Source: an uncultured Thermodesulfobacteriota bacterium
GTDB lineage: Bacteria > Desulfobacterota > Thermodesulfobacteria > Thermodesulfobacteriales > Thermodesulfatatoraceae
DNA: 64,000 bases
Assembly: GCA_964630855.1 (NCBI GenBank)
Contig: CAZVXP010000021.1
Span: forward strand, 29,038-93,037
Direction: 5' to 3'
The position numbers were made by a program, and so were the translations under genes. Position 1 is the first letter of the stretch, and each line of letters opens with the position of its first letter. This document shows positions 4,226 through 33,143 of the stretch, piece after piece. Below the pieces are notes generated by a model. That model worked only from the letters and a program-made list of their open reading frames with translations, had not been told where the DNA came from and searched no databases.

Positions 4226-4403
4226 AAAACACCTCCTTGTGCAGATTTAGCTCTTGATAAGTCCACAATATTTCTTCGGGCATAGCAGATCTTTTCAGAT
4301 CTGTGAAGTCCGGAGTTTTGGTCCTGATCGAAAAAAATCTTTCAATTTGTAGCTGAAATCTCAAGCAACCGAAAAAAATTGGAAGGGATTTTAAGGGGTA
4401 TCC

Positions 4404-6410
4404 ATGCGTTTACCTCGCCGCTGGCCTTTGGAATTGCGGATTATCTTTCCCTTTGGCTTTTTCTTGGGGATGGCCTTTTTTATCACCAATTATTTGACCC
4501 TTTCAGAGCTTAATACCTATCGGGAAGTTTTACTCAAAGAGGAACTTCAACTCGGTCGAGAAAATGTGCACTATTTTGAAGCTATTGCTCAGTATAATAT
4601 GCATTTAGCAGGTACTTTAGTCAAAAACCCTCGTTTTTTAGAATCTTTGATCTCTAATAAGGAACCAGAGGCTTTTCTTAATCGTCAGGCAATTCTTTTA
4701 AGTCGAGAAGCTCCGTTCCCTTATTTCGTATCTTTTAGGCAGTTAGAAAACTCGTCCGAGGCTTTTTGGCAACTTGAAAGACAAGGAGATGACTTATTTC
4801 TCTCTGGAGCAGCTCCCGTTATTTCTGGGGAGAAGTTGTTGGGTTTTTTGGTAGTTTCTTGCCGTCTAAAAGATGTTATCCATAGATTAGAACATATTGC
4901 ACATTTTCAAGCGGGTCTTCTCCTTCTAGATTCTGATAAAAGGCTTAAAATTCTCAAAGAAGTTCCGTTTCCCGTCGAAGAGAAGCTTCGGAAAAATCTT
5001 CAATATTTTTTACGTCAAAATCAAGCATTGAAAATAGGCCATCAGGTTGTTTTACTTTTCCCCTTACGCGATGCCAAAGGTGAAGTGATAGGTTTTTTTG
5101 TAAGGAGTACATTTTCTCCTTCTTTTTATTTTTCTCCTTATAATCTCCTCAAAAACAACATTTTTCCTACAGCGCTTCTTTTTGGTTTAGCTTTAATAGT
5201 CGCCATATTTTTTACGCGTCAATATCTTTGCGAACCACTGCGCAAATTTAATGATCAATTAAAAGAAATTTCTCGGGTTATAGGAAAGCGTTTGCGTCAA
5301 CCTGTAGAAGAATCTGTTCTAAAGGTAAGTGGTGATGATGAATTAGCTAATTTAGCTCGAACCATTAATGAACTCGTACGTGAACTTGACGAGCTAGCTT
5401 CATTTCGACAGGCTATTGAAACAGATGAAACTCCTCAGGAAATCTATAGTAGATTAGCTCGAGTAATTAAAAAGAAATTTGATTTTTCAAATTTTGTCAT
5501 TTTTGAAGTTTCTAATAGTCAAAATCGTATAGAACCTGTAATTGTTGAGCCATCTTGCCTTTTAGAAGAATGTTGTTATCAAGAAATAGAAGGCCGTCCG
5601 GCTCTTTGTCGAGTACTTCGGAGGGCCATTAAAGCTTCTTCTCTTCATTTTACAGAAACATGTGAATACTTTCGTGACCCTGATCTTAATTATTTATGTT
5701 TACCTCTTTATACTGGCGGTCATGTTATAGGTATTATTCATTTTCTTCTTCCTATAACTTTCCGTTTGGAAGAAAAATATCGTACAATTCTTAACCGAAT
5801 AGAGGCATATCTTCAGGAGGCAGCTCCTGTGCTGGAAGCTAAACGTTTTGCTCAAAGTTTGAGAGAAATTTCATTGCGAGACACTCTTACTGGTCTTTAT
5901 AATAGACGTATTTTGGATGATTTGGTTCCACAAATTGCAGCTGGTGTTGTTCGTAGAGATAGTATTATGGGCGTCTTGATGATAGATATCGATCATTTTA
6001 AGATAATTAATGATACATATGGTCATTCTTTTGGAGATCGTATTCTTAAATCTGTTGCTAGCATGGTGCAAGATGAGCTAAGATCTAGTGATTTAGCTAT
6101 CCGTTTTGGTGGAGAAGAGTTTCTTTGTCTTCTAGTCGATGTTGAAGAAGGTATAAGCTTTGCTATAGCTGAAAGAATTCGAGAGAAAATAGAAACAAAT
6201 TCTTTTGTCTTTGAAGGTCAGTTAGCAGCGGTAACAGTCTCTATTGGTGTAGCAGAATTTCCCCTTGACGACCGCAATCTTTGGAATGTCATCAGTTTTG
6301 CAGATCTAGCCCTTTACAGGGCTAAGCGGCAAGGTCGTAACCAATGCGTTCGTTTCGATCGGACGTTTTTGTTGGAAGAGAAGCCTAGAGTTTTAAATAG
6401 AAGACCTTGA
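4404..6410 (+). CDS. membrane sensor diguanylate cyclase (2 TM + periplasmic domain, HAMP, GAF-like, GGDEF)
   Basis: The C-terminal GGDEF domain has DIDHFKIINDTYGHSFGD, I-site RSSD, an active-site GGEEF (RFGGEEFLCLL) and ADLALYRAKRQGRN. The N-terminal half has two TM helices flanking about 230 aa. Confidence 0.9.
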   Translation: MRLPRRWPLELRIIFPFGFFLGMAFFITNYLTLSELNTYREVLLKEELQLGRENVHYFEAIAQYNMHLAGTLVKNPRFLESLISNKEPEAFLNRQAILLSREAPFPYFVSFRQLENSSEAFWQLERQGDDLFLSGAAPVISGEKLLGFLVVSCRLKDVIHRLEHIAHFQAGLLLLDSDKRLKILKEVPFPVEEKLRKNLQYFLRQNQALKIGHQVVLLFPLRDAKGEVIGFFVRSTFSPSFYFSPYNLLKNNIFPTALLFGLALIVAIFFTRQYLCEPLRKFNDQLKEISRVIGKRLRQPVEESVLKVSGDDELANLARTINELVRELDELASFRQAIETDETPQEIYSRLARVIKKKFDFSNFVIFEVSNSQNRIEPVIVEPSCLLEECCYQEIEGRPALCRVLRRAIKASSLHFTETCEYFRDPDLNYLCLPLYTGGHVIGIIHFLLPITFRLEEKYRTILNRIEAYLQEAAPVLEAKRFAQSLREISLRDTLTGLYNRRILDDLVPQIAAGVVRRDSIMGVLMIDIDHFKIINDTYGHSFGDRILKSVASMVQDELRSSDLAIRFGGEEFLCLLVDVEEGISFAIAERIREKIETNSFVFEGQLAAVTVSIGVAEFPLDDRNLWNVISFADLALYRAKRQGRNQCVRFDRTFLLEEKPRVLNRRP

Positions 6411-21001: not shown

Positions 21002-21180
21002 GGTCCCCTCCTTAGAATGAATTTGCAGCAAAAACTTCTCTGCACTAAAAGATAAGTCTGCCACTTGAGGCTTTCTGCCCTTTTCCCGCTAAAAACGTGA
21101 ATGGAGGAGCTAAAAGATGCTTGCCACCTCCTGGACCAAGCTGTAAACCCATGAAAGAAATCCCCCGAAGGAGGTCCATC

Positions 21181-22890
21181 ATGGCTGAAAGAGTAGTGGT
21201 GATCGGAGCTGTGGCCGCGGGACCCCGAGCCGCTTGTCGACTCAAAAGACTTCGTCCCGAAGCCGAGATCTACCTTGTCGACAAAGACGATCTCATTTCC
21301 TACGGGGGGTGCGGGATACCCTATTACGTCTCCGGGGACATCCCTGACGAGAACGAGCTCCGGAAGACGGCCTTTCACATGCTGCGCAACGAGGCCTTCT
21401 TCGAAAACGCCAAGGGGCTTCACGTTCTCACCAAAACCCTTGCCACCAAGATAGATCGCGAAAAGAAGGTTGTCCACGTAAAAAACTTAGACAGTGGCCA
21501 GGAAGATACCCTGCCCTACGACAAACTTGTTCTCACTACCGGGGCTTCCCCTTTCATTTTGCCTTTGCCGGGGCGCGATCTCGATGGCGTTTTTGCCATT
21601 TCTAACCTTCACTCCGCCATTGAGATCAAGGAGCGTGTGGCCAGGGGACAGGTCGAGAAAGTAGTTATTATCGGTGCCGGGCCCATCGGACTCGAGATGG
21701 CCGAAGCCTTCCGCGATCTTTGGGGACTTGAAGTCACGGTGCTCGAATACTTTGATCAACCCCTTCCTCGCATTGTGGACAAACCCATGGCCCGCATCGT
21801 GGCCCATCACCTGCAAGAAAAAGGAGTCAGGCTCGTTGTAAACGCCCGGACTAAAGAAATAGAGGGAAAAGATGGCAAAGTGGTGGCGGTGGTCACCGAA
21901 GACGGCCGTTATGAGTGTGACCTGGTGCTCATGGCCACCGGTGTGCGGCCAAACAGTCAGCTGGCCCGGGAGGCGGGTCTTCTAGTTTCTCCCCTCACCG
22001 GGGGAATCGTGGTCAACGAGCGTCTTCAAACCTCCGATCCAAACATCTATGCTGGAGGAGATTGTATTGAAGTCACCCACCTTATCACCGGCAAAAAGGT
22101 GGTTTTACCTCTGGGCTCCCTGGCCAACCGTCATGGCCGCATCATTGGAACCAACCTGGCCGGGGGAACGGAAACCTTTCGCGGGGCCGTAGGGGCCTTT
22201 GTCATGAAGTGTTTTGATCTGGCTATCGCCGCCTGTGGTGTTTCATACACGGTGGCCAGGGCTGAAGGTTTCGACGCCTTCTTCGCCCTCCACAACCAGA
22301 CCGAACGGGCTCATTATTACCCTGGAGCGGAGTTCATCTTCGTCGAGATTGTGGCAGATCGGCGTGACCGCCGAGTATTAGGTTTCCAGGCCGTAGGCCC
22401 CATGACCGACGGGGCCATGGCCCGGGTGAACGCCCTAGCCAAGCTTCTGGAGTTCAAGCCTCGCCTGGAAGACACAGCCTACATGGAGCTTGCCTACGCT
22501 CCTCCCTTCAACACCGCCCTTGATCCCATAAACGTGGTCTCCATGGTGGCCAGCAACCTGGCTGATGGTCTATTCAAGCCCACGACCTGGGATGAAGTGC
22601 GTGAGAGGCTTGAGAAGAATGACCCGGATACGATCTTTGTTGACGTGCGCCATCCTAAGGAAGCCGAACCTTTTGTCAAGAAATATCCGGGGCGCTGGAT
22701 CAATGTAGTTTACGATCAGGTGCGTCACAATCTGGACAAGATTCCCAGGGACAAAGACGTGATCCTCATTTGCAACTCTTCCATGCGTTCCTACGAAGCG
22801 GCTCGGGTACTATATGGAGCGGGTTACGAACGGGTTTATGTGCCCCTTGGAGGTTTAAACTTTCCCCGCCGTTGGGGTTGGGAATTTTAG
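21181..22890 (+). CDS. CoA-disulfide reductase / NADH-dependent persulfide reductase-type flavoprotein fused to a rhodanese domain
   Basis: FAD motif VVVIGAVAAGPRAA, redox Cys in SYGGCGIPYY, NAD motif VVIIGAGPIGLEMA and a C-terminal rhodanese with active-site ICNSSMRS. The start at ATG 21181 has GAAGGAGG upstream. Confidence 0.85.
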   Translation: MAERVVVIGAVAAGPRAACRLKRLRPEAEIYLVDKDDLISYGGCGIPYYVSGDIPDENELRKTAFHMLRNEAFFENAKGLHVLTKTLATKIDREKKVVHVKNLDSGQEDTLPYDKLVLTTGASPFILPLPGRDLDGVFAISNLHSAIEIKERVARGQVEKVVIIGAGPIGLEMAEAFRDLWGLEVTVLEYFDQPLPRIVDKPMARIVAHHLQEKGVRLVVNARTKEIEGKDGKVVAVVTEDGRYECDLVLMATGVRPNSQLAREAGLLVSPLTGGIVVNERLQTSDPNIYAGGDCIEVTHLITGKKVVLPLGSLANRHGRIIGTNLAGGTETFRGAVGAFVMKCFDLAIAACGVSYTVARAEGFDAFFALHNQTERAHYYPGAEFIFVEIVADRRDRRVLGFQAVGPMTDGAMARVNALAKLLEFKPRLEDTAYMELAYAPPFNTALDPINVVSMVASNLADGLFKPTTWDEVRERLEKNDPDTIFVDVRHPKEAEPFVKKYPGRWINVVYDQVRHNLDKIPRDKDVILICNSSMRSYEAARVLYGAGYERVYVPLGGLNFPRRWGWEF

Positions 22891-22917
22891 CGAGATCCGT
22901 TTGCTGTTCCTCTAGCT

Positions 22918-23292
22918 ATGCCCGAGCTGCTTTTGGTGGGTCTTGGTGGTTTTTGCGGAGCCATGGCGCGTTATCTTCTGGCCGGGCTCTTTTGGCGGCT
23001 TTCGCCTCTTTTTCCCTGGGGGACCTTTACGGTGAACGTTCTGGGAACTATGGCCCTGGGCTTCCTGATGACGCTGGCCACAGAGACGCTTCTCATTTCT
23101 CCAGCCCTCAGGGTCTTCTTGGCTATAGGATTTCTGGGATCCTTTACCACGTTTTCCACTTTTGCTTACGAAACAAGCGCTCTTCTGGATGATGGCGCCC
23201 TTGTTCCAGCTTTGCTAAATGTAGTCTTTAGTCTCCTGGCTGGTCTTTGTGGTGTGCGCCTGGGAGCATGGCTGGCCAGATCATTCTTTTAG
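22918..23292 (+). CDS. crcB: fluoride ion channel CrcB/Fluc
   Basis: 124 aa with 4 TM helices and motifs GGFCGAMARY, GTFTVNVLG and GFLGSFTTFSTF. Confidence 0.9.
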   Translation: MPELLLVGLGGFCGAMARYLLAGLFWRLSPLFPWGTFTVNVLGTMALGFLMTLATETLLISPALRVFLAIGFLGSFTTFSTFAYETSALLDDGALVPALLNVVFSLLAGLCGVRLGAWLARSFF

Positions 23293-23301
23293 GAGGCCGA
23301 A

Positions 23302-23625
23302 ATGGCCTACAAAAGGCTTACCATCTACGTCGATGAGGACGATCATTTTGGGAAGCGTCCCCTTTACGAAGAAATTCTCCACTTTTTGCGTCAAAATGGT
23401 ATCCGCGGGGCAACAGTCTTTAAAGGCGTCTTGGGCTGGGGACCGGATGGAGTGGTGCACACCGTGCGTCTCTTACGCGCCAGCGGTAACCTTCCCCTAA
23501 AGATCGAAGTCATAGAAACAGAAGAGAAGGTGGCCGCTATCCTGCCGGAATTGCAAAAACGCCTGCTAAAAGGTCTTCTCACTCTGGAAGATGTGGAAGT
23601 GTTAAAAGGCTATCCCGAGAGTTGA
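23302..23625 (+). CDS. DUF190 domain protein (frequent crcB neighbour)
   Basis: 107 aa with RPLYEEILHFLRQNGIRGATVFKGVLGWG, which is characteristic of DUF190. GGAGG lies upstream of the ATG. Confidence 0.8.
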   Translation: MAYKRLTIYVDEDDHFGKRPLYEEILHFLRQNGIRGATVFKGVLGWGPDGVVHTVRLLRASGNLPLKIEVIETEEKVAAILPELQKRLLKGLLTLEDVEVLKGYPES

Positions 23626-23681: not shown

Positions 23682-26600
23682 ATGCTCGCCAGGATCGAAG
23701 TGGCCCTCAAGCCTGAACTCCGCGATGCCCTGGGTGAAAAAACAGCCCGGCGGATGCGTGAGGACCTGGGACTTTCTGTCTCTTCCTGCCGAACCATCCG
23801 CGTCTACCTGGTAGAGGCTGAGATAAACGAAGGAGAGCTTGAGGCCTTTGCCTCCGGCCCCCTTTGTGATCCGGTGACCCAGCTTTACGCTGTAAGAAAG
23901 CCACTGGCCCCGCTTTTCGGTTTTGATTGGCTTATCCAGGTCGGGTTCCGGCCCGGGGTCACCGACAACGAGGGCAAGGTGGCCAGAGAAGCGCTTGAAC
24001 TCCTGCTTGGTCGAAAACTCTCAGAAGAAGAAAACGTTTATTCTCTCATGCAATATTTGGTGAAGGGGGAACTTTCCAGAGAAGATGCAGAACGAGCCGC
24101 CCGGGAGCTTCTGGCCAACGAGCTTATCGAGCGTTTTTGGATCATTTCACCTTCAGAGTTTGATGAAGAGCGTGGTCTTGAAATCCCTCCTCCCAAAGTG
24201 ACCGAGGAACCCGAGATTCGGGTGGAGCTTTTCGATCTTTCGACCCTCTCAGATGAAGAGTTGCTCAAGCTTTCGCGAGAAAGGGTGCTGGCCCTGAATC
24301 TTCGAGAAATGCAAACCATTCGAGACTATTTCAAGCGGCCGGAATTTCTGGATCTCCGGCGCCAACACGGCCTCGACCATCGGATCACAGACGTAGAGCT
24401 CGAATGTCTGGCCCAGACCTGGTCCGAACACTGCAAACACAAGATCTTCAACGCCAAAATTACTTACACCGACGAAACCACCGGTAAGACCGAGGTCATA
24501 GACAGTCTCTTCAGGACCTATATTCGGAGGGCCACGGATGAGATCCGGCAGGCCAAGGGAGAAAGGGATTTTTGTCTTTCGGTCTTCGTGGACAACGCCG
24601 GTGTCATTCGTCTGAACGAGAAATGGAACGTGGCCATGAAGGTGGAGACTCACAACAGCCCCTCAGCCCTTGATCCCTACGGTGGTGCGCTCACCGGCAT
24701 CGTGGGAGTGAATCGGGATCCTTTCGGCACAGGCAAGGGCTGCCTCCTGGTCTTTAACACCGACGTTTTCTGTTTCGCTCCCCCCGATTGGGACAGACCC
24801 CTGCCTCCCAGGCTCCTTCATCCCAAGCGTATCTTCGAAGGGGTACGTGAGGGGGTGGAGCACGGTGGCAACAAGAGCGGTATCCCTACGGTCAATGGCT
24901 CCATCGTCTTTGACTCACGTTATCTTGGTAAACCTTTAGTTTTTTGTGGCACGGGTGGGATCATGCCGGCCGAAGTCTGCGGGGAACCCAGCTGGAAAAA
25001 AGGGGCCCGCCCCGGGGATCTGGTGGTTATGGTGGGGGGAAGGATCGGAAAGGACGGCATTCACGGAGCTACCTTTTCTTCGGAGGAGCTTCACGAAGGA
25101 AGCCCTGCCACGGCGGTCCAGATCGGAGACCCCATCACCCAGAAGAAGATGTTCGACTTCTTGCTTGTGGCCAGGGACGAGTGCCTCTACACCTCCATCA
25201 CGGACAACGGCGCGGGGGGACTTTCTTCTTCCGTGGGTGAGATGGCCCGAGAGTCGGGTGGGGCGGAACTCGACCTTGAGAAGGCCCCCCTCAAATACCA
25301 CGGCTTACAGCCTTGGGAAATCTTGGTTTCGGAAAGCCAGGAGCGAATGACGCTAGCGGTGCCGCCGGAACATATCGACCGTTTTCTTGAGCTTGCCAGA
25401 AAGATGGACGTGGAAGCCACGGTACTTGGAAAGTTTACGGATTCGGGCTTTTTCCACGTGCGCTACGAGGGGAAAACAGTGGCCTTACTTCCGCTTGACT
25501 TTCTGCACGAAGGGGTGCCTCAGCTTGAGCTGCGGGCCATCTGGAGCCCCCCGGAACACGAAGAACCGGCTCTTCCAGTGCCGGAAGATTGCGGTGCCGT
25601 GCTCAAGGAGCTCCTTTCTCGCTACAACGTCTGTTCCAAGGAATACGTGGTGCGCCAGTATGACCACGAAGTGCAAGGGGGAAGCGTCATCAAGCCGCTG
25701 GTGGGGGTAAGAGATGATGGCCCAAGTGACGCGGCCGTGCTGCGGCCTGATCTTGAGCGTCTGGACGGCCTGGTGGTGGCCCACGGAATTTGTCCCAAAT
25801 ATTCCGATCTCGATACTTACTGGATGGTAATGAACGCGGTGGATGAAGCGGTTCGAAATGCAGTCTGTGTGGGGGCAGATCTCGAGCATATGGCAGGCCT
25901 TGATAATTTCTGCTGGTGTGACCCTATTCAGAGCGAAAAGACCCCGGATGGGCACTACAAATTGGCCCAGCTGGTGCGAGCCAACCAGGCCCTTTATGAG
26001 ATCACCACGGCTTACGGGGTCCCCTGTATTTCGGGGAAAGACTCCATGAAGAATGATTATCTGGCTGTAGGTCTTGGTTTGAGCCCGGAAAACAACCCTT
26101 ATGGGACGGGGGTGGTGCTTCCTGACGGAAGTCTCAAGATCTCCGTTCCCCCCACCCTCCTCTTTTCCGTTATCGCCCGAATCCCTGATGTCAGGCGCGC
26201 GATGACCATGGACGTCAAGCGTCCCGGAGATCTCATCTACCTTTTGGGAATGACCAGGGACGAGCTCGGAGGATCAGAGTATTTTCGAGCTCGTGGTTTC
26301 GTAGGGCAGAAGGTCCCGCAGGTGCAACCCGAGGCGGCTCGAGATCGCTATCTTCGCCTGAGGGAAGCCATTTATTACGATCTAGTTTCCGCAGCTCACG
26401 ATTGCTCAGATGGCGGTCTTGGTGTAGCTTTGGCAGAAATGGCCTTTGCCGGGGGTCTGGGGGTGCTGGTTGATCTTTCTGCTGTGCCTTACGAAGGGGA
26501 AGCACGGCCCGATTTCGTGCTTTTTTCTGAATCCGCAAGCCGTATTGTGGTCACGGTGCCGCGAGAGAAACAGCGGGAGTTTGAAAAGCTCTTTTCGGGT

Positions 26601-26732
26601 TCGGTTTACGCGCTCATCGGAGAGGTGGTGGCGGAGCCGGTCCTTATAGTTCGAAACGGTCGCGGAGAGACCCTCATAGAAGAGAACATCTTTGACCTCA
26701 AAGCCGCCTGGCAAAAACCCTTAAATTGGTAG
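23682..26732 (+). CDS. purL: phosphoribosylformylglycinamidine synthase, long PurL form with a PurS-like N-terminal domain and no glutaminase domain
   Basis: Motifs CKHKIFNA, VETHNSPSALDPYGGALTGIVGVNRD, GDPITQKK and ITDNGAGGLSSSVGEM, with duplicated AIR-synthase-like halves. AGGAGG lies upstream. Confidence 0.85.
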   Translation: MLARIEVALKPELRDALGEKTARRMREDLGLSVSSCRTIRVYLVEAEINEGELEAFASGPLCDPVTQLYAVRKPLAPLFGFDWLIQVGFRPGVTDNEGKVAREALELLLGRKLSEEENVYSLMQYLVKGELSREDAERAARELLANELIERFWIISPSEFDEERGLEIPPPKVTEEPEIRVELFDLSTLSDEELLKLSRERVLALNLREMQTIRDYFKRPEFLDLRRQHGLDHRITDVELECLAQTWSEHCKHKIFNAKITYTDETTGKTEVIDSLFRTYIRRATDEIRQAKGERDFCLSVFVDNAGVIRLNEKWNVAMKVETHNSPSALDPYGGALTGIVGVNRDPFGTGKGCLLVFNTDVFCFAPPDWDRPLPPRLLHPKRIFEGVREGVEHGGNKSGIPTVNGSIVFDSRYLGKPLVFCGTGGIMPAEVCGEPSWKKGARPGDLVVMVGGRIGKDGIHGATFSSEELHEGSPATAVQIGDPITQKKMFDFLLVARDECLYTSITDNGAGGLSSSVGEMARESGGAELDLEKAPLKYHGLQPWEILVSESQERMTLAVPPEHIDRFLELARKMDVEATVLGKFTDSGFFHVRYEGKTVALLPLDFLHEGVPQLELRAIWSPPEHEEPALPVPEDCGAVLKELLSRYNVCSKEYVVRQYDHEVQGGSVIKPLVGVRDDGPSDAAVLRPDLERLDGLVVAHGICPKYSDLDTYWMVMNAVDEAVRNAVCVGADLEHMAGLDNFCWCDPIQSEKTPDGHYKLAQLVRANQALYEITTAYGVPCISGKDSMKNDYLAVGLGLSPENNPYGTGVVLPDGSLKISVPPTLLFSVIARIPDVRRAMTMDVKRPGDLIYLLGMTRDELGGSEYFRARGFVGQKVPQVQPEAARDRYLRLREAIYYDLVSAAHDCSDGGLGVALAEMAFAGGLGVLVDLSAVPYEGEARPDFVLFSESASRIVVTVPREKQREFEKLFSGSVYALIGEVVAEPVLIVRNGRGETLIEENIFDLKAAWQKPLNW

Positions 26733-26741
26733 GTAGCCCAG

Positions 26742-28100
26742 ATGAAGATTATGGTTTTTGGTCGACCGTCGGTTTCTTTTGGCCCGGAGGTTGAAATCGT
26801 TCCTTCGAAAGAAGGAACTTTAGCTGATCTTTATCTCATTGGTCCAGAAGAGATGAATCTTCCGAAACTCCTCACCCTGCGTTCCGATCCAGAAAAGGCC
26901 TTATCTCCCGTTTATCTGACGGAATTCACCGAAGATCGGCGACTTCTGGAAGTGGCAGATGGCCTCTGGCGTGGGGAAGAGACTTTGGCAGAAGTGGCCA
27001 AGATAAAGAAACGTCTGTCTTCCTTGCCTGCCCCTTCGGTCCGTCTCTCAGATACGGAGAGGCGTTTAATACTTTTTTTGAGATTTTTGTGGAGTCGCAG
27101 AAGAGAGGAATTTCATCCCTTTCCCGAGGTGAACTCGCGGGTGGGTTATCACTATCCCCTGCTTCAGGGGTTTCTCGGTTTTCAGCCTGGTGAAGAAATA
27201 GATCATCTGGAACAGATGTTCGCCCTGGGGGTGATACGACCTTTTCGACTCATCAATCGAGTGCCCATCTGTCCGCACGATGGACACTATCAGCTTGTCT
27301 TTCGTGAGATCTGTCCTCAGTGTGGATCCCTCAATTTGGAAGAAACGGAACTCTACTACCATTTTGATTGTGGTTATGTTGGACCGCGAGAAGATTTCGT
27401 GAGAGAGGAGATTTTGCGTTGTCCTAAATGTCACCAGGCCTTGCGACATCTGGGCGTGGATTACGAGATACCCAATCGAGTCTTTCGGTGTCTGGATTGT
27501 CATTATCTAGCAGAAGAGCCAAAAGTGGAGGTCTTTTGTCTTCATTGTGAAAGGAGTTTTTCTCTGGAATCCCTGCATTTCTTTGAAGCTCAAATTTATC
27601 AAATTACAGCTTTGGGTTTTCAGTCGGCAGAAGAAGGCCAGCTTCCAGTTCGGGCTGTGGAAGAGATTTTTGATCGTCTTAATCTGGTGAGATGGAATAT
27701 CTTTCAGTTTGTAGTGGACTGGGAGAAGAAGAAATACGAACGTTATCAACACCCTTTTAGTTTGCTTATTGTAAGTTGGGATTGGAAACGCATTGAAGAG
27801 TTGGCAGAGACGTATGGTATTTCAGCTATAAGATCTTATTTCGAAGAAGTAATAGGTTATTTGCGCGAGAGTTTGCGCTCTGTGGATATCGGAACTCGTT
27901 ACGAACTTGGACGTTATCTCTTTTTGTTGCCAGAAACTCCCGGAGATAAAGCTGAAATTGTTCGTCAACGTCTAAGCGAAAAAATCAAACATATCAAAAC
28001 AGATCTTCCCGTCCCTAAAGTTGATTTTCATCTTGAATCCTGCCCTGGAAGATTGGAAAGTATGGATCTTGAAGCCATTTTGCGTGATCTTCAAGCCTAA
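26742..28100 (+). CDS. cytoplasmic zinc-ribbon protein with a degenerate GGDEF domain retaining the RxxD I-site (candidate c-di-GMP receptor)
   Basis: Ten Cys lie in CxxC-type pairs (ICPHDG, CPQCG, CPKCH, CLDCH, CLHCE). The C-terminal domain aligns to GGDEF: FSLLIVSWDWKRIEELAETYG ... RSVD-IGTRY-ELGRY-LFLLPET versus the canonical RxxD-xxxRx-GGDEF-xxxLPxT. Confidence 0.75.
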   Translation: MKIMVFGRPSVSFGPEVEIVPSKEGTLADLYLIGPEEMNLPKLLTLRSDPEKALSPVYLTEFTEDRRLLEVADGLWRGEETLAEVAKIKKRLSSLPAPSVRLSDTERRLILFLRFLWSRRREEFHPFPEVNSRVGYHYPLLQGFLGFQPGEEIDHLEQMFALGVIRPFRLINRVPICPHDGHYQLVFREICPQCGSLNLEETELYYHFDCGYVGPREDFVREEILRCPKCHQALRHLGVDYEIPNRVFRCLDCHYLAEEPKVEVFCLHCERSFSLESLHFFEAQIYQITALGFQSAEEGQLPVRAVEEIFDRLNLVRWNIFQFVVDWEKKKYERYQHPFSLLIVSWDWKRIEELAETYGISAIRSYFEEVIGYLRESLRSVDIGTRYELGRYLFLLPETPGDKAEIVRQRLSEKIKHIKTDLPVPKVDFHLESCPGRLESMDLEAILRDLQA

Positions 28101-29407
28101 TGTTTGATTTTTATTATTTTCTTCAGCAATTAAGTCATTATTTTCGCCATTTTGTCTTAAGTGAACCTTTATTACAAATTCTTATTTTAACTCCTGCTTT
28201 CTGGATTGAATATCCCTGGTATTTCCTTATGACAATACTTCCCTTTTTTCATCGCGTTTTCCCTTCTTATTTGCAGGATTATTCTCCTCCTGTTGGTATC
28301 ATTGTGACAGCTTATCGTGAACCATCGAGTGATATTTTGCGCAATTTGCGAACCATTCTTTATCAGGATTATCCTGGAAAGATAGAGATTGTTTTAATTT
28401 TTGATTCTCCAAGGGATGTTACTTTTTTTAAAAATCTTGAACTTCCTGCACGAAGATTTTTAAAGGTTATAAGTAAATATTATCGTGGTGGCAGGGCATC
28501 ATCTCTGAATTTAGGTCTAAAGCTTCTTTCTCCAGAGATAGAAATTGTGTTAGCTGTTGATGCTGATACTTCTCTTGACTATGACGCTTTGCGTCTTCTT
28601 CTACGTCCTTTTAGCAATCCACGCGTAATAGCGGTCTCGGGAAACATCAAAGTGCGCAATGCCAAGGATAGCATCTGGACAAGATTTCAGCATATCGAAT
28701 ACGTAATTTCCATAGCCCTGGCTCGTTTAACCCTTTCTCGTCTTTTTGGTACGGTGAACAATATCTCTGGAGCTTATGGAGCTTTTAGGCGAGGTTTTTT
28801 GGAGTTGGTTTATGGTTGGGATTCGGGAACGGCGGAAGATCTGGACCTCACGGCAAGACTTAAGATAGCAGCTTCTTTTTATCCAGAGGCTCGCTTTGCT
28901 TTTGTGCCAGAATCCGTGGCACGCACCTCTGTGCCCGAGACTTTTGCCGGACTCATCAAACAGAGACAGCGGTGGGATGGTGATTTGGTGTGGCTCTTTT
29001 TTAAAAAATACCGACGATTTTTGGTGCCGGCTTTTCCTAATTGGAGAGACTTTTTCCTATTTCTTGACCTTAATCTTCTCCTTCAATTTGTTATGCCCGT
29101 GGCCATGTTCGTATATAACGTTTATCTCTGGTTGAATTACGGTCTGGTGGGCCTTTTGGTGGTTGATCTCTTTATCCTTGCCGTTTATGCCTTGTGGACT
29201 TTAGTTATGTATTTTTCTTATCTCTTGACTATTTCCCGAGAACGTGCTTATGATCTCTCATTCTTTGGATATCTCCTGATTTATCCTTTGTATAACTGGA
29301 TTTTGCGGTTACATGCTTTGAAGGCTTATTTTGACGATTGGTGTGGAGATTTGCATAAGTATTCATCATACGTGCCACGATGGGTGTCAAGAAGATTGCC
29401 TTTTTAG
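28100..29407 (+). CDS. processive family-2 glycosyltransferase (membrane-embedded beta-glycan synthase, PgaC/BcsA/NodC-like core, no PilZ)
   Basis: Motifs VTAYRE (UDP-binding D region), AVDADT (DxD), GTAEDLDLTARL (TED) and QRQRWDGD (QxxRW). There are 2 N-terminal and about 3-4 C-terminal TM helices. The ATG overlaps the upstream TAA (TAATG). Confidence 0.85.
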   Translation: MFDFYYFLQQLSHYFRHFVLSEPLLQILILTPAFWIEYPWYFLMTILPFFHRVFPSYLQDYSPPVGIIVTAYREPSSDILRNLRTILYQDYPGKIEIVLIFDSPRDVTFFKNLELPARRFLKVISKYYRGGRASSLNLGLKLLSPEIEIVLAVDADTSLDYDALRLLLRPFSNPRVIAVSGNIKVRNAKDSIWTRFQHIEYVISIALARLTLSRLFGTVNNISGAYGAFRRGFLELVYGWDSGTAEDLDLTARLKIAASFYPEARFAFVPESVARTSVPETFAGLIKQRQRWDGDLVWLFFKKYRRFLVPAFPNWRDFFLFLDLNLLLQFVMPVAMFVYNVYLWLNYGLVGLLVVDLFILAVYALWTLVMYFSYLLTISRERAYDLSFFGYLLIYPLYNWILRLHALKAYFDDWCGDLHKYSSYVPRWVSRRLPF

Positions 29408-31383
29408 TTTTAATTTTTGTCATCTGGGATCATAGCTCTTGGGCTCTAAGATATAAAGAATTGCCCCTTCTTGTAGACGGATCACCTCTCTTCTCTTCCT
29501 ATAGTTACCATCTGAAACAGATTGAATCCCGTATTAAGCGCCTCTCTTTAGAGAATGGCTGGTGGCTTTCTTTGAGTGGCACATATTATTTCAATAATAG
29601 TTATGCTAAAGATGTTATTGGCTATACTTTTGGTTTATCACTCAAGCTTAATAAAGATTTTGGAGGATATAACTCCAATAATTTATTTCAGCGTTTTTTG
29701 GCCCGACTTGACTTTTTGAAAGTTGGTCTTGCTAAAGATGAGAGAAAGGTTTTGCTCCTTTGGCGTCTTCGTTTTCTTTTCATAGAATATCTTCTCCTTG
29801 AACAAAAGATTCAGATTTTGAAAAATCTCGAACAAGAAATTGAAACCATCCTCTCTCCTTTGAGAGAGAGGATGATCCATGGTCTTGAGAAAAGAGAAGA
29901 CGTGGACTTCTATGTTGATCGTCTTTTTCGTTATCGTCTGGAGGAGAACCTTTGTCGCCAACAACAGAAAAAGATAGAAGAACTATTTTCTCTTATATTA
30001 AATTGCGAAGATTGTCGTCCGGAAAAGGAAAATCTTTATTTGACCTTGCCCTTAAACCTTCCCTCTCCGGAAAAGACAGATTTTCTGGAGAAAGTCTCCG
30101 AACAACTGGCTGAGCTTTCGAAAAGACGATTTTATCCTCGTTTCAAATTTTCTCTTGGTGTAGATCGAACCTGGGACGACAATTCTGGCAGTCTCTGGAC
30201 AGGTTTCTCGGTCTCCGTCCCTTTGCACTTTCAGGCCTCGGAAAGGGCTCGCCAGGAGGAGATCTTTGCCCTGTGGCAACGCCTTAAAGCCGAAGAGGAG
30301 CTGCGAGAGACGCGCCTGAAGAACCAGGCCTTTGAACACCTCATGGGTTTGATCTCTTATCAAAGCGATCTTCGTTTCCTGGCTCGCCGCTTTTCCTCCG
30401 CTCTTTTGGAGAAGCCTCCCCCGGTCTTTGATCGTTCCTGGGCCAGGTCCAGGATCAAAGCGTTGGAGATCCTGAAAGATTATTACGACGTTCAGATCCG
30501 GATCTTTGCCTTGTGGGCTTCCTTGGGAGGTGCTTTACAACTTAAGGATTTCCCGGTCTCGCATGACAGAGGTCTATGGGTCGCTTTACCTCCTCGCGAC
30601 TTGGCAGCTTGGTGGTGGGCCAGTGAGCCTTCGGTTTCTCACGTTCGCCAGGTTTCAGATTCTTTAGGGCTTACCCGGCTTTATTTTTCTCTAAACGCTA
30701 AACAGATCGAAGAGTACCTTCAAAAAGGGAATCCGGAACTTTCACGCTTTATTGTCGATCTGTATCAACAGGGAACAGTGACTGAAATCCTCCTCGGAGA
30801 ACCCACTTGGATCTTCCCTCAGGCTCGAAAGAAACTCTTTCAAATTGTCTCTTGGCTGGAAAAACGCCTTTATCCTTTGGTTCAGGTGGTTCATCTCGAT
30901 TTGGAACCCCACGCCCTTTCGGATTTTTCCCGTAACAAAGAAAGATATCTTCGTCTCTATTTGGATACCTTGGCAGAACTTCGAAAAGAAACCCCTATGG
31001 ATCTGATCGTAGATGTTCCTCTTTATTTCTTCAGGGAAAAAATTTCTTGGCAGGGAAAGGAAGCCCTTTTGATTGATCATCTGGTGCCTTTGGTCAACGG
31101 AGTGGTAGTGATGAACTATTTTGGTGATCCTGATCTTTTTGAGCGCTGGGCCAAAAAAGTAGCTCAAATGCTAGAGGCACGAAGCCTCCCTTACTGGATA
31201 GGCCTTTCTCTGGAAAAGGACATCCCCTCTGAAGAGAGTCTCAAAGACCTTTCGGTTGAAGTATTTCGGCAGTTTTTGAGAGAAGAACTCTCACAGATTT
31301 CTCCTTCTTATTTTTTCCGAGGTTTGGCGGTGCAAAATTTCAAGGAGTTAGAGAAATATGCTGCACCTTCGCAGACTCCGTAG
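29380..31383 (+). CDS. secreted two-domain protein: TolC/OEP-like N-terminal half fused to a TIM-barrel glycoside-hydrolase-like C-terminal half (tentative)
   Basis: Signal peptide MGVKKIAFLVLIFVIWDHSSWA. The N-terminal half alternates beta segments (WWLSLSGTYYF, FKFSLGVDRTW, GFSVSVPL) with long helices. The C-terminal half has a beta/alpha periodicity with RLYFSL, EILLGEPTW, VVHLDLEPH, LIVDVP and VVVMNY strands. It overlaps the GT2 gene by 28 nt. Confidence 0.55.
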   Translation: MGVKKIAFLVLIFVIWDHSSWALRYKELPLLVDGSPLFSSYSYHLKQIESRIKRLSLENGWWLSLSGTYYFNNSYAKDVIGYTFGLSLKLNKDFGGYNSNNLFQRFLARLDFLKVGLAKDERKVLLLWRLRFLFIEYLLLEQKIQILKNLEQEIETILSPLRERMIHGLEKREDVDFYVDRLFRYRLEENLCRQQQKKIEELFSLILNCEDCRPEKENLYLTLPLNLPSPEKTDFLEKVSEQLAELSKRRFYPRFKFSLGVDRTWDDNSGSLWTGFSVSVPLHFQASERARQEEIFALWQRLKAEEELRETRLKNQAFEHLMGLISYQSDLRFLARRFSSALLEKPPPVFDRSWARSRIKALEILKDYYDVQIRIFALWASLGGALQLKDFPVSHDRGLWVALPPRDLAAWWWASEPSVSHVRQVSDSLGLTRLYFSLNAKQIEEYLQKGNPELSRFIVDLYQQGTVTEILLGEPTWIFPQARKKLFQIVSWLEKRLYPLVQVVHLDLEPHALSDFSRNKERYLRLYLDTLAELRKETPMDLIVDVPLYFFREKISWQGKEALLIDHLVPLVNGVVVMNYFGDPDLFERWAKKVAQMLEARSLPYWIGLSLEKDIPSEESLKDLSVEVFRQFLREELSQISPSYFFRGLAVQNFKELEKYAAPSQTP

Positions 31384-32341
31384 GCGAATTCCTCTGGGGG
31401 TCCCGGAATCATTACGAGAAGGCCCTAAGCCCAAAAGCCGCCGCGGATACTATCTTCTGGTCCTGTTCTTTTTACTGATAGGTTTGGCCCTTTATTTCTA
31501 TTACTACCATCTCTTGGTAAAGGGCTCGGGGCTGGTAGTCGGGGAGGTATTGGCTATCCGTTCTCCCCTAAAAGGACAGGTGGTTTCAGTACCCGAACTG
31601 GGAAGCGCCTTTCAGATGGGAGATCCTCTCCTTTCACTCAAACCTTATGCCCTCTTCGATGAAATTCCTTACCTTGAAGAAAAGAGAGAGACGCTTGAGG
31701 CCAGTTACGAAGTCTTGAACGCCGAAAGATGGAATCTCTTGCGGGAGAAAGAGACCCTCCAGAAACAACTCTCCGAACTCAATGCCCTGTATCGGCGACG
31801 TTTGGTCACTCTTCCGGAAAAGCTGAGTCTGCTCTCCGCCCTTCGGTCCTTAAACGCCCAAATTTTGAGTTTTGAGCAGGGATTAAAAAGGATAGATCTT
31901 GAGCTTCTGGAGGTAGAGAAAAGATTGGCCGAAGCCAAGAAGAGACAAGAGTCCTATGTATTTCGGGCTCCCGAAAGGGGCTTCGTTTTGGAGAGATTGG
32001 TTAGCCCTGGAAGTCTGGTCTTCCCGGGAGACTATCTCCTTCGTATTTCTTGTGGTCCTCCTCGGTATCTTTTGGTCTATTTTTCCCTAAAAGATGTTCC
32101 GTATATTTATCCGGGCCTGACCGTCAAAGTCCGTCTGGACCGGGGCGTGGTTTTCAAGGGTGTGGTTCGTGATATCTTGAAGGAAACCGCCTACAAGCCT
32201 CCTTATCTTCTGCGCACCTTCGAGAAACGCGCGCTTTCCCTTCAAGTATTGGTGGAGATCCCGGATCTTGAAGAGCCCCAGCTCCTCTTGCAAGAACCCG
32301 TTTGGGTGAGTTTCCGGCGTCCTTTTCCGTGGTTTCATTGA
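31358..32341 (+). CDS. HlyD-family periplasmic adaptor (membrane fusion protein)-like
   Basis: N-terminal basic segment plus a single TM helix (YYLLVLFFLLIGLALYFYYY), split lipoyl-like halves (IRSPLKGQVVSV ... FRAPERGFVLERLVSPGSLVFPGDYLLRI) flanking a coiled coil, and a C-terminal beta-barrel-like region. It overlaps the upstream gene by 26 nt. Confidence 0.7.
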   Translation: MLHLRRLRRRIPLGVPESLREGPKPKSRRGYYLLVLFFLLIGLALYFYYYHLLVKGSGLVVGEVLAIRSPLKGQVVSVPELGSAFQMGDPLLSLKPYALFDEIPYLEEKRETLEASYEVLNAERWNLLREKETLQKQLSELNALYRRRLVTLPEKLSLLSALRSLNAQILSFEQGLKRIDLELLEVEKRLAEAKKRQESYVFRAPERGFVLERLVSPGSLVFPGDYLLRISCGPPRYLLVYFSLKDVPYIYPGLTVKVRLDRGVVFKGVVRDILKETAYKPPYLLRTFEKRALSLQVLVEIPDLEEPQLLLQEPVWVSFRRPFPWFH

Positions 32342-32378: not shown

Positions 32379-33143
32379 ATGAAGCTGGCCATTTGCGGTA
32401 AGGGAGGCGTGGGAAAATCAACGGTGGCGGCCCTCCTTGTTGAGGCCCTACTCGCTTCGGGGTATCGGGTCCTGGCCATCGATGCTGATCCTAGCCCTCA
32501 TTTGGCACGCCTTCTGGGGGTGCCAGGGGCCGAAGAGATCGTGCCTATTGCCGAGATGAAGGAGCTCCTTCTTGAGCGCGCTCAAAAAGACGGTCCCTTT
32601 TACGTCCTGAACCCCAAGGTGGATGATCTTCCGGCCAGGTTCATGAAAGAAAGAAACGGACTCAAACTCATGGTCCTTGGGGCGGTGCGCGAAGCGGGAG
32701 GCGGTTGCGCCTGCCCGGAACAAACCGTCTTAAGGCGTCTGCTCTCACTTTTGCTCCTTCAGAGCCAGGAGGCGGTAATCGTCGATCTGGAGGCCGGTGT
32801 GGAACCCTTTGGCCGGGCTACGGTTTCAGCCCTGGAGGCAGTTTTGATCGTGGTTCAGCCTTATCGGGGTAGCCTGGAGACCGCCAGGCAAATCCGAAAA
32901 ATGGCCCAGGATCTCGGGGTGAAGCGTGTCTTTTTGGTGGGGAATCTCTTCTCTCAGGAAGAAGACCGTTTGTTCGTGGAAGAGGCCCTTGCTGAAAAAC
33001 TTTTAGGCTATCTTCCCCGGGATGAGGAGTTATCACGGGCCGAACGAATGGGAAAACCTCTTCGGGAGGTGAGGGGGCCCGCCTGGAAAGCGGCTCAAGA
33101 ATTGGCGCGCAAGCTGGAGAAAGAGCTTTCTCATGGAGCTTAA
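32379..33143 (+). CDS. CooC-type MinD/ParA-family NTPase (metallocentre maturation ATPase-like)
   Basis: Deviant Walker A ICGKGGVGKST and a CxC metal motif GGGCACPE. Size and order resemble CooC/AcsF accessory proteins. Confidence 0.75.
   Translation: MKLAICGKGGVGKSTVAALLVEALLASGYRVLAIDADPSPHLARLLGVPGAEEIVPIAEMKELLLERAQKDGPFYVLNPKVDDLPARFMKERNGLKLMVLGAVREAGGGCACPEQTVLRRLLSLLLLQSQEAVIVDLEAGVEPFGRATVSALEAVLIVVQPYRGSLETARQIRKMAQDLGVKRVFLVGNLFSQEEDRLFVEEALAEKLLGYLPRDEELSRAERMGKPLREVRGPAWKAAQELARKLEKELSHGA

Follow-up and report, generated by a model that had tools for sequence, protein, structure and literature searches.

The DNA analysed here, referred to below as the window, is a stretch of 64,000 nt of contig CAZVXP010000021.1 from an uncultured Thermodesulfobacteriota bacterium (GCA_964630855.1; positions 29,038-93,037, forward strand). 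It carries a candidate exopolysaccharide (EPS) synthesis and export module of four open reading frames (ORFs), here called genes A to D, which are all read in the same direction on the + strand at 26742-28100, 28100-29407, 29380-31383 and 31358-32341 and encode proteins of 452, 435, 667 and 327 amino acids (aa), respectively. Genes A and B meet in the sequence TAATG, with an overlap of 1 nt; B and C overlap by 28 nt, and C and D by 26 nt. A preliminary description of this DNA had reported four co-directional ORFs with these overlaps. The ORF coordinates agreed with that report, and all of the motifs that it quoted were found in their places. Gene A begins 9 nt behind the stop codon of a large purL gene, and a scan for promoter-like and terminator-like sites found no promoter or terminator of the module's own above the shuffled expectation.

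Proteins encoded by the four genes

Gene B (28100..29407, +) is predicted, on the basis of Pfam, NCBIfam, a family profile and a transmembrane scan, to encode a membrane-embedded processive synthase of glycosyltransferase family 2 (GT2), 435 aa in length. Pfam matched it to Chitin_synth_2 (3.5e-21) and to GT2 families, and transmembrane segments were found at both ends of the protein, at residues 18-36, 320-344 and 352-375. The conserved motifs comprise D102 (28403-28405, +), the DxD motif DAD (28559..28567, +), the QxxEY motif QHIEY (28688-28702, +), AED (28832-28840, +) and QRQRW (28961-28975, +). Within these, D102, D154, D156, Q197, E200, Y201, D247, Q288, R289, R291 and W292 were invariant in 20 homologues of B from approximately 10 phyla. 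B has all the signatures of a processive, membrane-embedded synthase, processivity itself being a prediction. Neither a PilZ domain nor any other extra domain was found in B by Pfam or NCBIfam. The preliminary view of B as a membrane-anchored GT2 with DAD, 'TAED' and QRQRW and no PilZ domain holds, with the third motif reported here as AED.

The family profile of B matched hyaluronan synthase (HAS) with an E-value of 1e-30 over positions 66-405, transmembrane region included, followed by BcsA (1e-16) and chitin synthase (1e-14). NCBIfam PgaC_IcaA (TIGR03937) was the top curated match in 20 of 20 homologues, with a best E-value among them of 1.5e-60; it matched B itself at 1.3e-35 and 123.2 bits, below the equivalog cut-off of 422.3 bits. 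CelA (TIGR03030) gave no match to the window GT2 at E <= 0.1 and matched 12 of the 20 homologues at E <= 1e-5. For the family as a whole, PgaC, NodC and HAS outscored CelA by a wide margin. By these scores, B is a relative of PgaC/IcaA and not an equivalog, and its nearest relatives are PgaC/IcaA, NodC, and the hyaluronan and chitin synthases.

Gene C encodes a fusion protein. It opens with a signal-like peptide, recognised by reading of the sequence (MGVKKIAFLVLIFVIWDHSSWAL; 29380..29448, +), that has no lipobox cysteine. Next comes a TolC-family outer-membrane-factor half (residues ~24-400; 29449..30579, +), identified by Pfam OEP matches in homologues and by a family profile. In homologues at the same operon position, Pfam OEP appeared as two repeats with scores of 57-100 bits (1e-15 to 1e-19). 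A 26-homologue profile that has the window protein as its first sequence matched complete TolC-family factors, of which VceC came first (4e-14), followed by OprN, MtrE, OprM and CmeC. These profile matches place the N-terminal part of C in the TolC family.

The C-terminal half of C (residues 402-662; 30583..31365, +) was modelled by AlphaFold2 as an eight-stranded beta/alpha barrel, with a predicted local distance difference test score (pLDDT) of 70-96. A signal-peptide protein with a TolC-like half and a beta/alpha-barrel-like half had been proposed beforehand; the profile matches and the model agree with this, and the barrel can now be called GH18-like. Foldseek placed a GH18 chitinase at the top of its matches, followed by GH113, GH164, GH20 and GH10, at target-normalised TM-scores of about 0.5. 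The barrel profile matched PDB 10yv at 2.7e-32 and GH18 chitinases at 0.005-0.05. In profile alignments, including that to 5xwf, the H-L-D-x-E-P of the barrel (HLDLEP, 30892-30909, +) aligned with GH18 D-x-D-x-E, and its M-x-Y (MNY, 31111-31119, +) with GH18 M-x-Y-D. In the AlphaFold2 model, the D-x-E lies at the end of strand 4 and the M-x-Y at the end of strand 6. D507, E509, P510, M578 and Y580 varied little or not at all among the members of the family, fused or free-standing. Of the GH18 signature DxxDxDxE, only the last D-x-E (D507, E509) is kept in C; the first two Asp are lost, with H505 in place of the second. Pfam GH18 (PF00704) gave no match to the window barrel and sub-threshold matches to several members. 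By these comparisons, the barrel is a GH18-like putative glycosidase and not a member of GH18. In TolC, both termini are at the periplasmic end, so that the barrel should be periplasmic, with three copies per duct.

The barrel family includes a large set of free-standing secreted proteins of ~300 residues (P0020, P0048 and others) and has no Pfam model. Extra free-standing copies also occur near the module in two loci, L014 (2860-3729) and L028 (5048-6424). The one solved structure of this family is PDB entry 10yv_A, a protein of 275 aa named 'Putative GH97 from Cellulomonas fimi'. Its GH97 label is doubtful, since 275 residues do not fit a GH97 enzyme, and a literature search for a publication on PDB 10yv or 'GH97 Cellulomonas fimi' returned nothing relevant. 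A long form of C (P0005, P0007-P0015; ~1000-1100 aa) carries an additional 300-400 N-terminal residues, with no Pfam match, in front of the OEP and barrel parts. It was found in Hydrogenedentota and in Rhodothermota-type loci with the gene order BACD (L002:2556-5714, L070, L086).

Gene D (31358..32341, +) is predicted from Pfam, NCBIfam and a family profile to encode a periplasmic adaptor of the EmrA/HlyD type, 327 aa long, with a single transmembrane segment at residues 30-48 (31445-31501, +). Pfam HlyD_3 matched at 3.6e-6 with 28.1 bits against a cut-off of 22.2 bits, coiled-coil matches covered residues 99-200, and NCBIfam subfamilies of membrane fusion proteins (MFPs) were matched as well. 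The family profile of D matched EmrA at 3.2e-33 over positions 17-293, then LipC, MacA and HlyD. These results, together with the transmembrane scan, bear out the single-span HlyD-like adaptor of the preliminary description. The inner-membrane partners of EmrA-type adaptors lack a periplasmic domain, which would fit a GT2 in that place. No other inner-membrane transporter was found in the module or conserved beside it among the 80 loci described below, which leaves B as the only candidate inner-membrane partner of D.

A polymer of an N-acetylglucosamine (GlcNAc) type has about even odds; two independent, weak leads point to it and away from a glucan, namely the affinity of B to PgaC, NodC, HAS and chitin synthase and the GH18-like signatures of the barrel. 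In true GH18 enzymes, these signatures serve substrate-assisted catalysis via the N-acetyl group.

Gene A (26742..28100, +) is predicted to encode a cytoplasmic regulator that starts with an alpha/beta domain, continues with TackOD1, a zinc-ribbon domain, and ends in a degenerate GGDEF domain, as judged from the ORF, Pfam, AlphaFold2 and Foldseek. A hydrophobicity scan found no transmembrane segment in the protein. Pfam TackOD1 (PF18551) matched with an E-value of 3e-48 and 164.3 bits against a gathering threshold of 32 bits (residues 107-286; 27060..27599, +). The CxxC/HxxC motifs start at residues 191, 207, 227, 250 and 266, and the TackOD1 cysteines (177, 191, 194, 210, 227, 230, 250, 253, 266 and 269) showed no variation in 8 homologues and little or none in 39. 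In the AlphaFold2 model of A (pLDDT 86.6), the N-terminal alpha/beta domain leads into a middle part of helices and zinc ribbon and then into a C-terminal domain. For the C-terminal domain, 50 of the 50 matches listed by Foldseek were GGDEF-domain proteins, with target-normalised TM-scores of at most 0.70 (DosC, WspR); Pfam GGDEF matched residues 330-426 below threshold (E 1e-4). In alignments to the GGDEF domains of 3ign and WspR, this domain (residues 300-452; 27639..28097, +) has ELGRY (27903-27917) at the GGDEF position. The aligned active-site residues are substituted, so that A cannot plausibly make cyclic di-GMP (c-di-GMP). A cytoplasmic zinc-ribbon protein in which GGDEF has become ELGRY and RxxD is kept had been anticipated from the first inspection, and Pfam, Foldseek and the alignments support it. 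The idea that the N-terminal domain of A is a canonical receiver found no support; the domain gave no Response_reg match, and its invariant D29 opens the third strand and does not end it.

The RxxD motif of A is RSVD (R379-D382; 27876..27887, +). It lies 5 residues upstream of the GGDEF position and aligns with R242xxD245 of WspR (RSSD), while R334 (27741-27743, +) aligns with WspR R198. A further accessory arginine, R410 (27969-27971, +), stood out, as did R334, by its conservation in homologues. WspR R198, R242 and D245, like PleD R313, R359, D362 and R390, are residues that we take to be contacts of the c-di-GMP inhibitory site (I-site). By this alignment, A keeps residues that bind c-di-GMP in inhibited cyclases.

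The function of TackOD1 has been termed 'obscure', and archaeal TackOD1 proteins have been linked to type IV pilus loci (PMC5847659). We found a stand-alone TackOD1 protein of 403 aa (L093:6001-7212) right behind genes for a T2SSE ATPase and two T2SSF platform proteins, a pilus-gene neighbourhood that agrees with the published archaeal link (PMC5847659). More generally, TackOD1 may act as an output domain of membrane-embedded platforms for secretion or assembly.

Distribution of the module and conservation of the I-site

Word-indexed homologue searches, which returned 5 relatives of C and 14 of A, had suggested that the module is rare. This was overturned by an exhaustive profile search and a genome scan. 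The exhaustive search found 2169 representatives related to C, 645 of them at E <= 1e-10; the relatives of C included many OEP-barrel fusions of 700 or 1000 residues and many free-standing, signal-peptide-bearing barrels of ~300 residues. The genome scan, made with the alignment of A, found relatives of A in at least 580 GTDB species representatives. The best 80 loci of these A-bearing representatives were annotated with profiles built from the A to D families and served as the synteny sample.

Of the 80 loci, 59, which represent more than 10 phyla, have all four genes co-directional and within 6 kb; many of the incomplete ones were cut by contig ends. Three gene orders occurred among the 59 complete loci (36 CDAB, 21 ABCD and 2 BACD). 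The module was found in Thermodesulfobacteriota, KSB1, Calditrichota, Planctomycetota, Bacteroidota, Gammaproteobacteria (including Thiodiazotropha symbionts), Desulfobacterota, Omnitrophota, Nitrospinota and Hydrogenedentota. The preliminary description had named the same four-gene neighbourhood in other genomes as a test of its reading, and this co-conservation was observed. Clustering of all neighbours of the 80 loci recovered no fifth conserved gene, such as one for a deacetylase, an acetyltransferase or an epimerase; the sole recurrent neighbour was a hybrid histidine kinase.

Reduced forms of the module were also observed. Both of the two Actinomycetota loci had A and B only, which would be expected of monoderm cells; we assume that these organisms lack an outer membrane. 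In Aeromonas australiensis, Plesiomonas shigelloides and some Alphaproteobacteria, A, B and D were present without a dedicated duct, an arrangement that matches the Xcs and Bgs systems considered below, which use an unlinked (housekeeping) TolC. Such A-B-D loci in culturable Gammaproteobacteria include L089 (Plesiomonas shigelloides p1, NZ_CP062197.1 62216-65916), L083 (Aeromonas australiensis) and L090 (an Aeromonas caviae plasmid). The A homologue of these loci is named 'diguanylate cyclase' in RefSeq. This name is probably wrong, since the GGDEF position reads ADDRL in the one homologue checked, that of A. australiensis (L083). A plasmid of Alisedimentitalea scapharcae (L092) carries a 312-aa A-like protein that covers query residues 1-302, without the GGDEF-like part, together with a GT2-HlyD pair and then galE. 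On plasmids, the best GT2 matches sit on exactly those replicons that have a TackOD1 gene.

We compared the I-site residues across 89 homologues of A. R334, R379 and R410 were present together in every non-Bacteroidota lineage sampled. Most Bacteroidota homologues had all three arginines replaced and D382 kept, and D382 was nearly invariant overall (84 of 89). For early Bacteroidetes genomes, many histidine kinases but no diguanylate cyclases have been reported (PMC1183210). We take the joint loss of the three arginines in a phylum reported to be without c-di-GMP as the strongest in silico support for ligand binding by A.

The hybrid histidine kinase (HisKA-HATPase-REC, where REC denotes a receiver domain) adjoined the module in 17 of the 80 loci, mostly in Bacteroidota (e.g., L035:11725-13788, - strand). 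Arginine loss and a kinase neighbour were seen in Bacteroidota loci among L032-L088 (e.g., L033, L035, L040). It looks as if the input of the module has been switched from c-di-GMP to a phosphorelay in Bacteroidota. On a plasmid of Roseibium aggregatum (L091), a REC-type TackOD1 'response regulator' of 626 aa adjoins the GT2 gene, with genes for a CHASE-kinase, an Hpt protein and a cyclase nearby. Across these loci, TackOD1 is the constant part next to the synthase, and the degenerate GGDEF or REC domain is the exchangeable input.

The window itself encodes, at 4404-6410 (+), a 668-aa dCache-HAMP-GAF-GGDEF protein with an intact RSSD...GGEEF and a Pfam GGDEF match of 1.9e-43. It lies in the stretch of lowest G+C in the window (0.385 for 4001-6000) and may itself have been acquired horizontally. 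Given this intact-looking cyclase, the organism probably makes c-di-GMP, and the protein is a plausible source of it. Gating of the module by c-di-GMP in this organism is, with some reserve, the reading towards which we lean.

Proposed mechanism and comparison with known systems

The four proteins very probably provide an architecture for EPS synthesis and export. That they form a self-contained, synthase-dependent EPS machine, arranged like a tripartite efflux pump and switched by c-di-GMP, we regard as fairly probable. In the proposed mechanism, c-di-GMP would bind the I-site (R334, R379xxD382, R410) of the catalytically dead GGDEF domain of A, and the TackOD1 zinc-ribbon domain would relay the signal to B and thereby activate it. 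B would polymerise a beta-linked, probably GlcNAc-containing chain and thread it through its own transmembrane channel. An oligomer of D, anchored by one transmembrane helix, would span the periplasm and join B to the TolC-like half of C, which would serve as a dedicated trimeric outer-membrane duct from which the chain exits. The GH18-like barrel, tethered at the periplasmic end of the duct, would trim, release or clear the polymer. Trimming or clearing enzymes of other EPS systems are BcsZ, the C-terminal domain of PgaB, PslG, PelA and AlgL. The module probably specifies an unrecognised biofilm matrix polymer.

Several observations weigh against this reading or parts of it. In the window protein C, Pfam OEP (PF02321) matched one stretch, at 5.7e-4 and 20.2 bits versus a cut-off of 22 bits, and residues 1-400 were of low confidence in an AlphaFold2 model of full-length C made from a 5-sequence alignment. 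No member of the barrel family reached the gathering score of Pfam GH18 (29.6 bits; best member, 25.1 bits), and the Foldseek matches of the barrel included non-glycosidase TIM barrels. If D and C formed a sealed conduit, the exported chain would be out of reach of a periplasmic glycosidase, which makes the role of the barrel hard to explain. With B so far below the PgaC/IcaA cut-off (123 versus 422 bits), the sugar and the linkage are guesses. The modules of Bacteroidota persist without the I-site arginines, and neither a c-di-GMP riboswitch nor any other RNA element was matched by Rfam anywhere in the window. Lastly, to call TackOD1 a synthase-specific domain would be too strong, given the archaeal-type member that adjoins T2SSE/T2SSF pilus genes.

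The barrel may also have a task other than hydrolysis: at the entrance of the duct it could guide or remodel the chain, either as a carbohydrate-binding or chaperone module or as a transglycosylase. The C-terminal domain of PgaB was first thought of as such a non-hydrolase module. The failure of every member to pass the GH18 threshold would fit this alternative, as would the replacement of the first two Asp of DxxDxDxE (H505 for the second) and the only moderate Foldseek scores (~0.5). We nevertheless consider it rather unlikely, since the D-x-E-P of strand 4 and the M-x-Y of strand 6 are invariant or nearly so, as catalytic residues should be, and the many free-standing secreted paralogues are as expected for enzymes. 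A different question is whether the product is a polymer at all. Like NodC, B could make short chito-oligosaccharides, or else it could make a glycolipid; what the D-C pump exports would then be a signal or a surface lipid. Such a pump would lack a transporter of the ABC, MFS or RND type in the module to pass a small product to the adaptor, and clustering of the neighbours found no acyltransferase or deacetylase genes of the Nod type. The C-terminal transmembrane bundle of B aligns with that of the polymer-translocating hyaluronan synthase, and a conserved endo-type glycosidase-like domain suits a polymer better. Against these points stand the place of NodC among the closest curated families, with the same motifs, the better record of TolC/MFP systems with small molecules and glycolipids than with polymers, and the still unproven direct passage of polysaccharide through TolC (PMC13438883). 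On this evidence, a short product seems decidedly unlikely.

The same hardware could alternatively respond to a signal other than c-di-GMP, with A as a scaffold or another kind of sensor and RxxD kept for structure. The inputs would then be redox state or zinc, sensed via the Cys-rich TackOD1 domain, phosphorylation via the N-terminal domain, or another nucleotide at the I-site. Since D382 is nearly invariant even where R379 is lost, part of the RxxD motif does appear to be structural. Bacteroidota versions without the arginines, often beside a hybrid histidine kinase, would agree with another signal, and so would the REC-type TackOD1 protein next to the GT2 of Roseibium, with its Hpt and CHASE-kinase neighbours, and the obscure function of TackOD1 in the literature (PMC5847659). 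However, the three aligned arginines are kept jointly outside Bacteroidota and lost jointly in most members of that phylum, which is reported to be without diguanylate cyclases (PMC1183210), the window encodes an active-looking cyclase, and PelD and PssE provide direct precedent. A signal other than c-di-GMP is therefore, in our judgement, improbable, though one to be taken seriously. The idea that A to D are chance neighbours, in which an efflux-pump remnant lies beside an unrelated envelope glycosyltransferase and a signalling protein, would find support in the position of the module, wedged 9 nt behind purL with no promoter of its own above chance. The synteny of 59 of 80 loci, with all four genes co-directional in three orders and across more than 10 phyla, already all but refutes it. 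The plasmid GT2 matches on TackOD1-bearing replicons and the overlaps of start and stop codons also speak against it, and we give it hardly any credence.

Returning to the proposed c-di-GMP-switched EPS machine, its tripartite principle is already known from Xcs and from Bgs (PMC13438883). Export by a GT2, a HlyD-type adaptor and TolC has been proposed for cyanobacterial cellulose (Maeda 2018, as presented in PMC8892547 and PMC12430437), in agreement with the cyanobacterial HlyD/TolC cellulose system that the preliminary description mentions. According to these two sources, Xcs consists of XcsA (GT2-PilZ), XcsB (HlyD-like), XcsC (an endoglucanase) and an unlinked TolC in Thermosynechococcus and other cyanobacteria. 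Xcs has the same four roles that are proposed for the module (a processive GT2, a HlyD-type adaptor, a glycosidase and a TolC-type duct) and is under c-di-GMP control, as the module would be; neither has equivalents of BcsB or BcsC. In contrast to the BcsA-type Xcs synthase with its fused PilZ domain, B is PgaC/HAS/NodC-like without PilZ, and the candidate receptor is a separate TackOD1-degenerate GGDEF protein. Xcs uses an unlinked housekeeping TolC and a separate endoglucanase, whereas the module encodes a TolC paralogue in the operon, fused to a GH18-like barrel.

The rhizobial mixed-linkage beta-glucan system, Bgs, comprises BgsA (GT2), BgsB (HlyD family) and TolC (PMC5567048, PMC13438883). 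Similar to the module, it combines a GT2 and a membrane fusion protein in one operon; it is activated by c-di-GMP and genetically requires TolC. The A-B-D versions of Aeromonas, Plesiomonas and Alphaproteobacteria resemble it most. However, BgsA binds c-di-GMP via its own C-terminal domain, whereas the candidate receptor of the module is the separate protein A. Bgs also makes a glucan and, unlike the module, has no glycosidase, dedicated duct or TackOD1 protein. In most of the loci, the GT2 gene adjoins the gene for a HlyD-family adaptor, as in Xcs and Bgs. B neither carries a c-di-GMP domain nor is it a BcsA-type glucan synthase. The module differs from Xcs and Bgs in five respects, namely synthase type, separate receptor, operon-encoded duct, duct-glycosidase fusion and broader taxonomic range.

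Among the other systems compared, PgaABCD/IcaADBC gave the best curated match of B, and Pga is also c-di-GMP-dependent and has a periplasmic TIM-barrel glycosidase, the C-terminal domain of PgaB. The module, however, has no PgaD/IcaD, CE4 deacetylase or PgaA porin-TPR protein and would export by an MFP and a TolC-type duct. Membership in Pga/Ica was rejected, as B scores far below the equivalog cut-off and pgaA, pgaB and pgaD are not in the module or its conserved neighbourhood. Similarly, a Bcs-type cellulose synthase was rejected, there being no PilZ domain, a weak or absent CelA match, and no BcsB or BcsC. PelD of Pel and PssE of the Listeria Pss system are c-di-GMP receptors inside EPS operons that bind by the I-site of a degenerate GGDEF domain (PMC4125290; bioRxiv 10.1101/768473). 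Like them, A has a dead GGDEF domain with RxxD and is encoded beside the glycosyltransferase that it is thought to activate. PelD is membrane-anchored with a GAF domain and PssE has another architecture, whereas A is soluble with TackOD1; outside the GGDEF fold there is no detectable homology. With pumps of the EmrAB-TolC type, the module shares an adaptor nearest to EmrA and a TolC half that matches VceC, OprN, MtrE and OprM. It differs from them in that the inner-membrane partner would be a glycosyltransferase and not an MFS, ABC or RND protein, and in that the duct bears an extra enzyme domain. The barrel of C resembles GH18 chitinases in its TIM barrel, with D-x-E ending strand 4 and M-x-Y ending strand 6, and differs in being sub-threshold and lacking the first two Asp.

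Judged by the components that define each system, the module falls outside Pga, Bcs, Pel, Pss and Alg. Neither the gene set nor the TolC-glycosidase fusion nor a TackOD1 receptor was described in any paper found by full-text searches for TackOD1 and for the components in combination. The earlier statement that the genes match no named EPS system was consistent with both results.

Direct export through TolC is regarded as unproven in the literature on both of these systems. With Bgs, TolC could act indirectly, which 'cannot be ruled out' (PMC13438883). The Xcs model, whose three genes are unlinked, 'lacks experimental validation' according to PMC12430437, which also calls for cases organised as operons. 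In the module, the duct is encoded in the operon, dedicated and fused to a glycosidase, which removes the genetic confound of a housekeeping TolC and offers a clean system to ask whether channels of the TolC type carry polysaccharides. The module also provides a first, testable functional hypothesis for TackOD1. The module is widespread in environmentally important, little-studied groups (KSB1, Calditrichota, Planctomycetota, Bacteroidota, Omnitrophota and sulfur-oxidising symbionts), and its three-gene version occurs in tractable hosts, Plesiomonas and Aeromonas. It also presents a natural signalling experiment, in which one effector has apparently been rewired from c-di-GMP input to phosphorelay input. 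More tentatively, and with the balance of our judgement slightly against it, the module may represent a broad EPS class (at least 580 species, more than 10 phyla) that makes a chitin- or poly-N-acetylglucosamine-like polymer and uses a dedicated TolC paralogue with its own glycosidase and TackOD1 as the synthase-switching output. In the same tentative reading, the input to TackOD1 would be c-di-GMP in most phyla and a phosphorelay in Bacteroidota and some Alphaproteobacteria. If this reading is true, the module would be the first system with a TolC-type duct genetically dedicated to polysaccharide, and it would give TackOD1 its first functional assignment.

Flanking genes and base composition

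The G+C content of the module is 0.40-0.50, compared with 0.56-0.57 in purL (23682-26732) and in the gene downstream of the module (32379-33143). The module lies directly behind purL in all four related Thermodesulfobacteriota loci with an annotated upstream flank (L001, L003, L004 and L005), and purL is not upstream of the module in the other phyla examined. The lower G+C and the confinement of the purL-adjacent site to Thermodesulfobacteriota loci suggest that the module is of horizontal origin and that the insertion is old.

The downstream gene (32379-33143, +) begins 38 nt behind gene D and encodes a P-loop ATPase of the CbiA/MinD/ParA type with a weak match to BcsQ (1.8e-5). We considered it as a BcsQ-like fifth component and rejected this: only L003-L005, the three closest relatives, have it behind the module, T. 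atlanticus (L001) lacks it, and in other phyla no such conserved neighbour was recovered. It is therefore probably outside the module. Upstream of purL, the window encodes a pyridine-nucleotide disulfide oxidoreductase-rhodanese fusion, crcB and a DUF190 gene (21097-23625), with family names taken from the syntenic relative L003; Rfam detected no fluoride riboswitch in the window. The terminator scan flagged an inverted repeat on the - strand at 29843-29878, inside the TolC-like half of gene C, with 16 pairs and a 4-nt loop (GGATCATCCTCTCTCTCAAAGGAGAGAGGATGGTTT).

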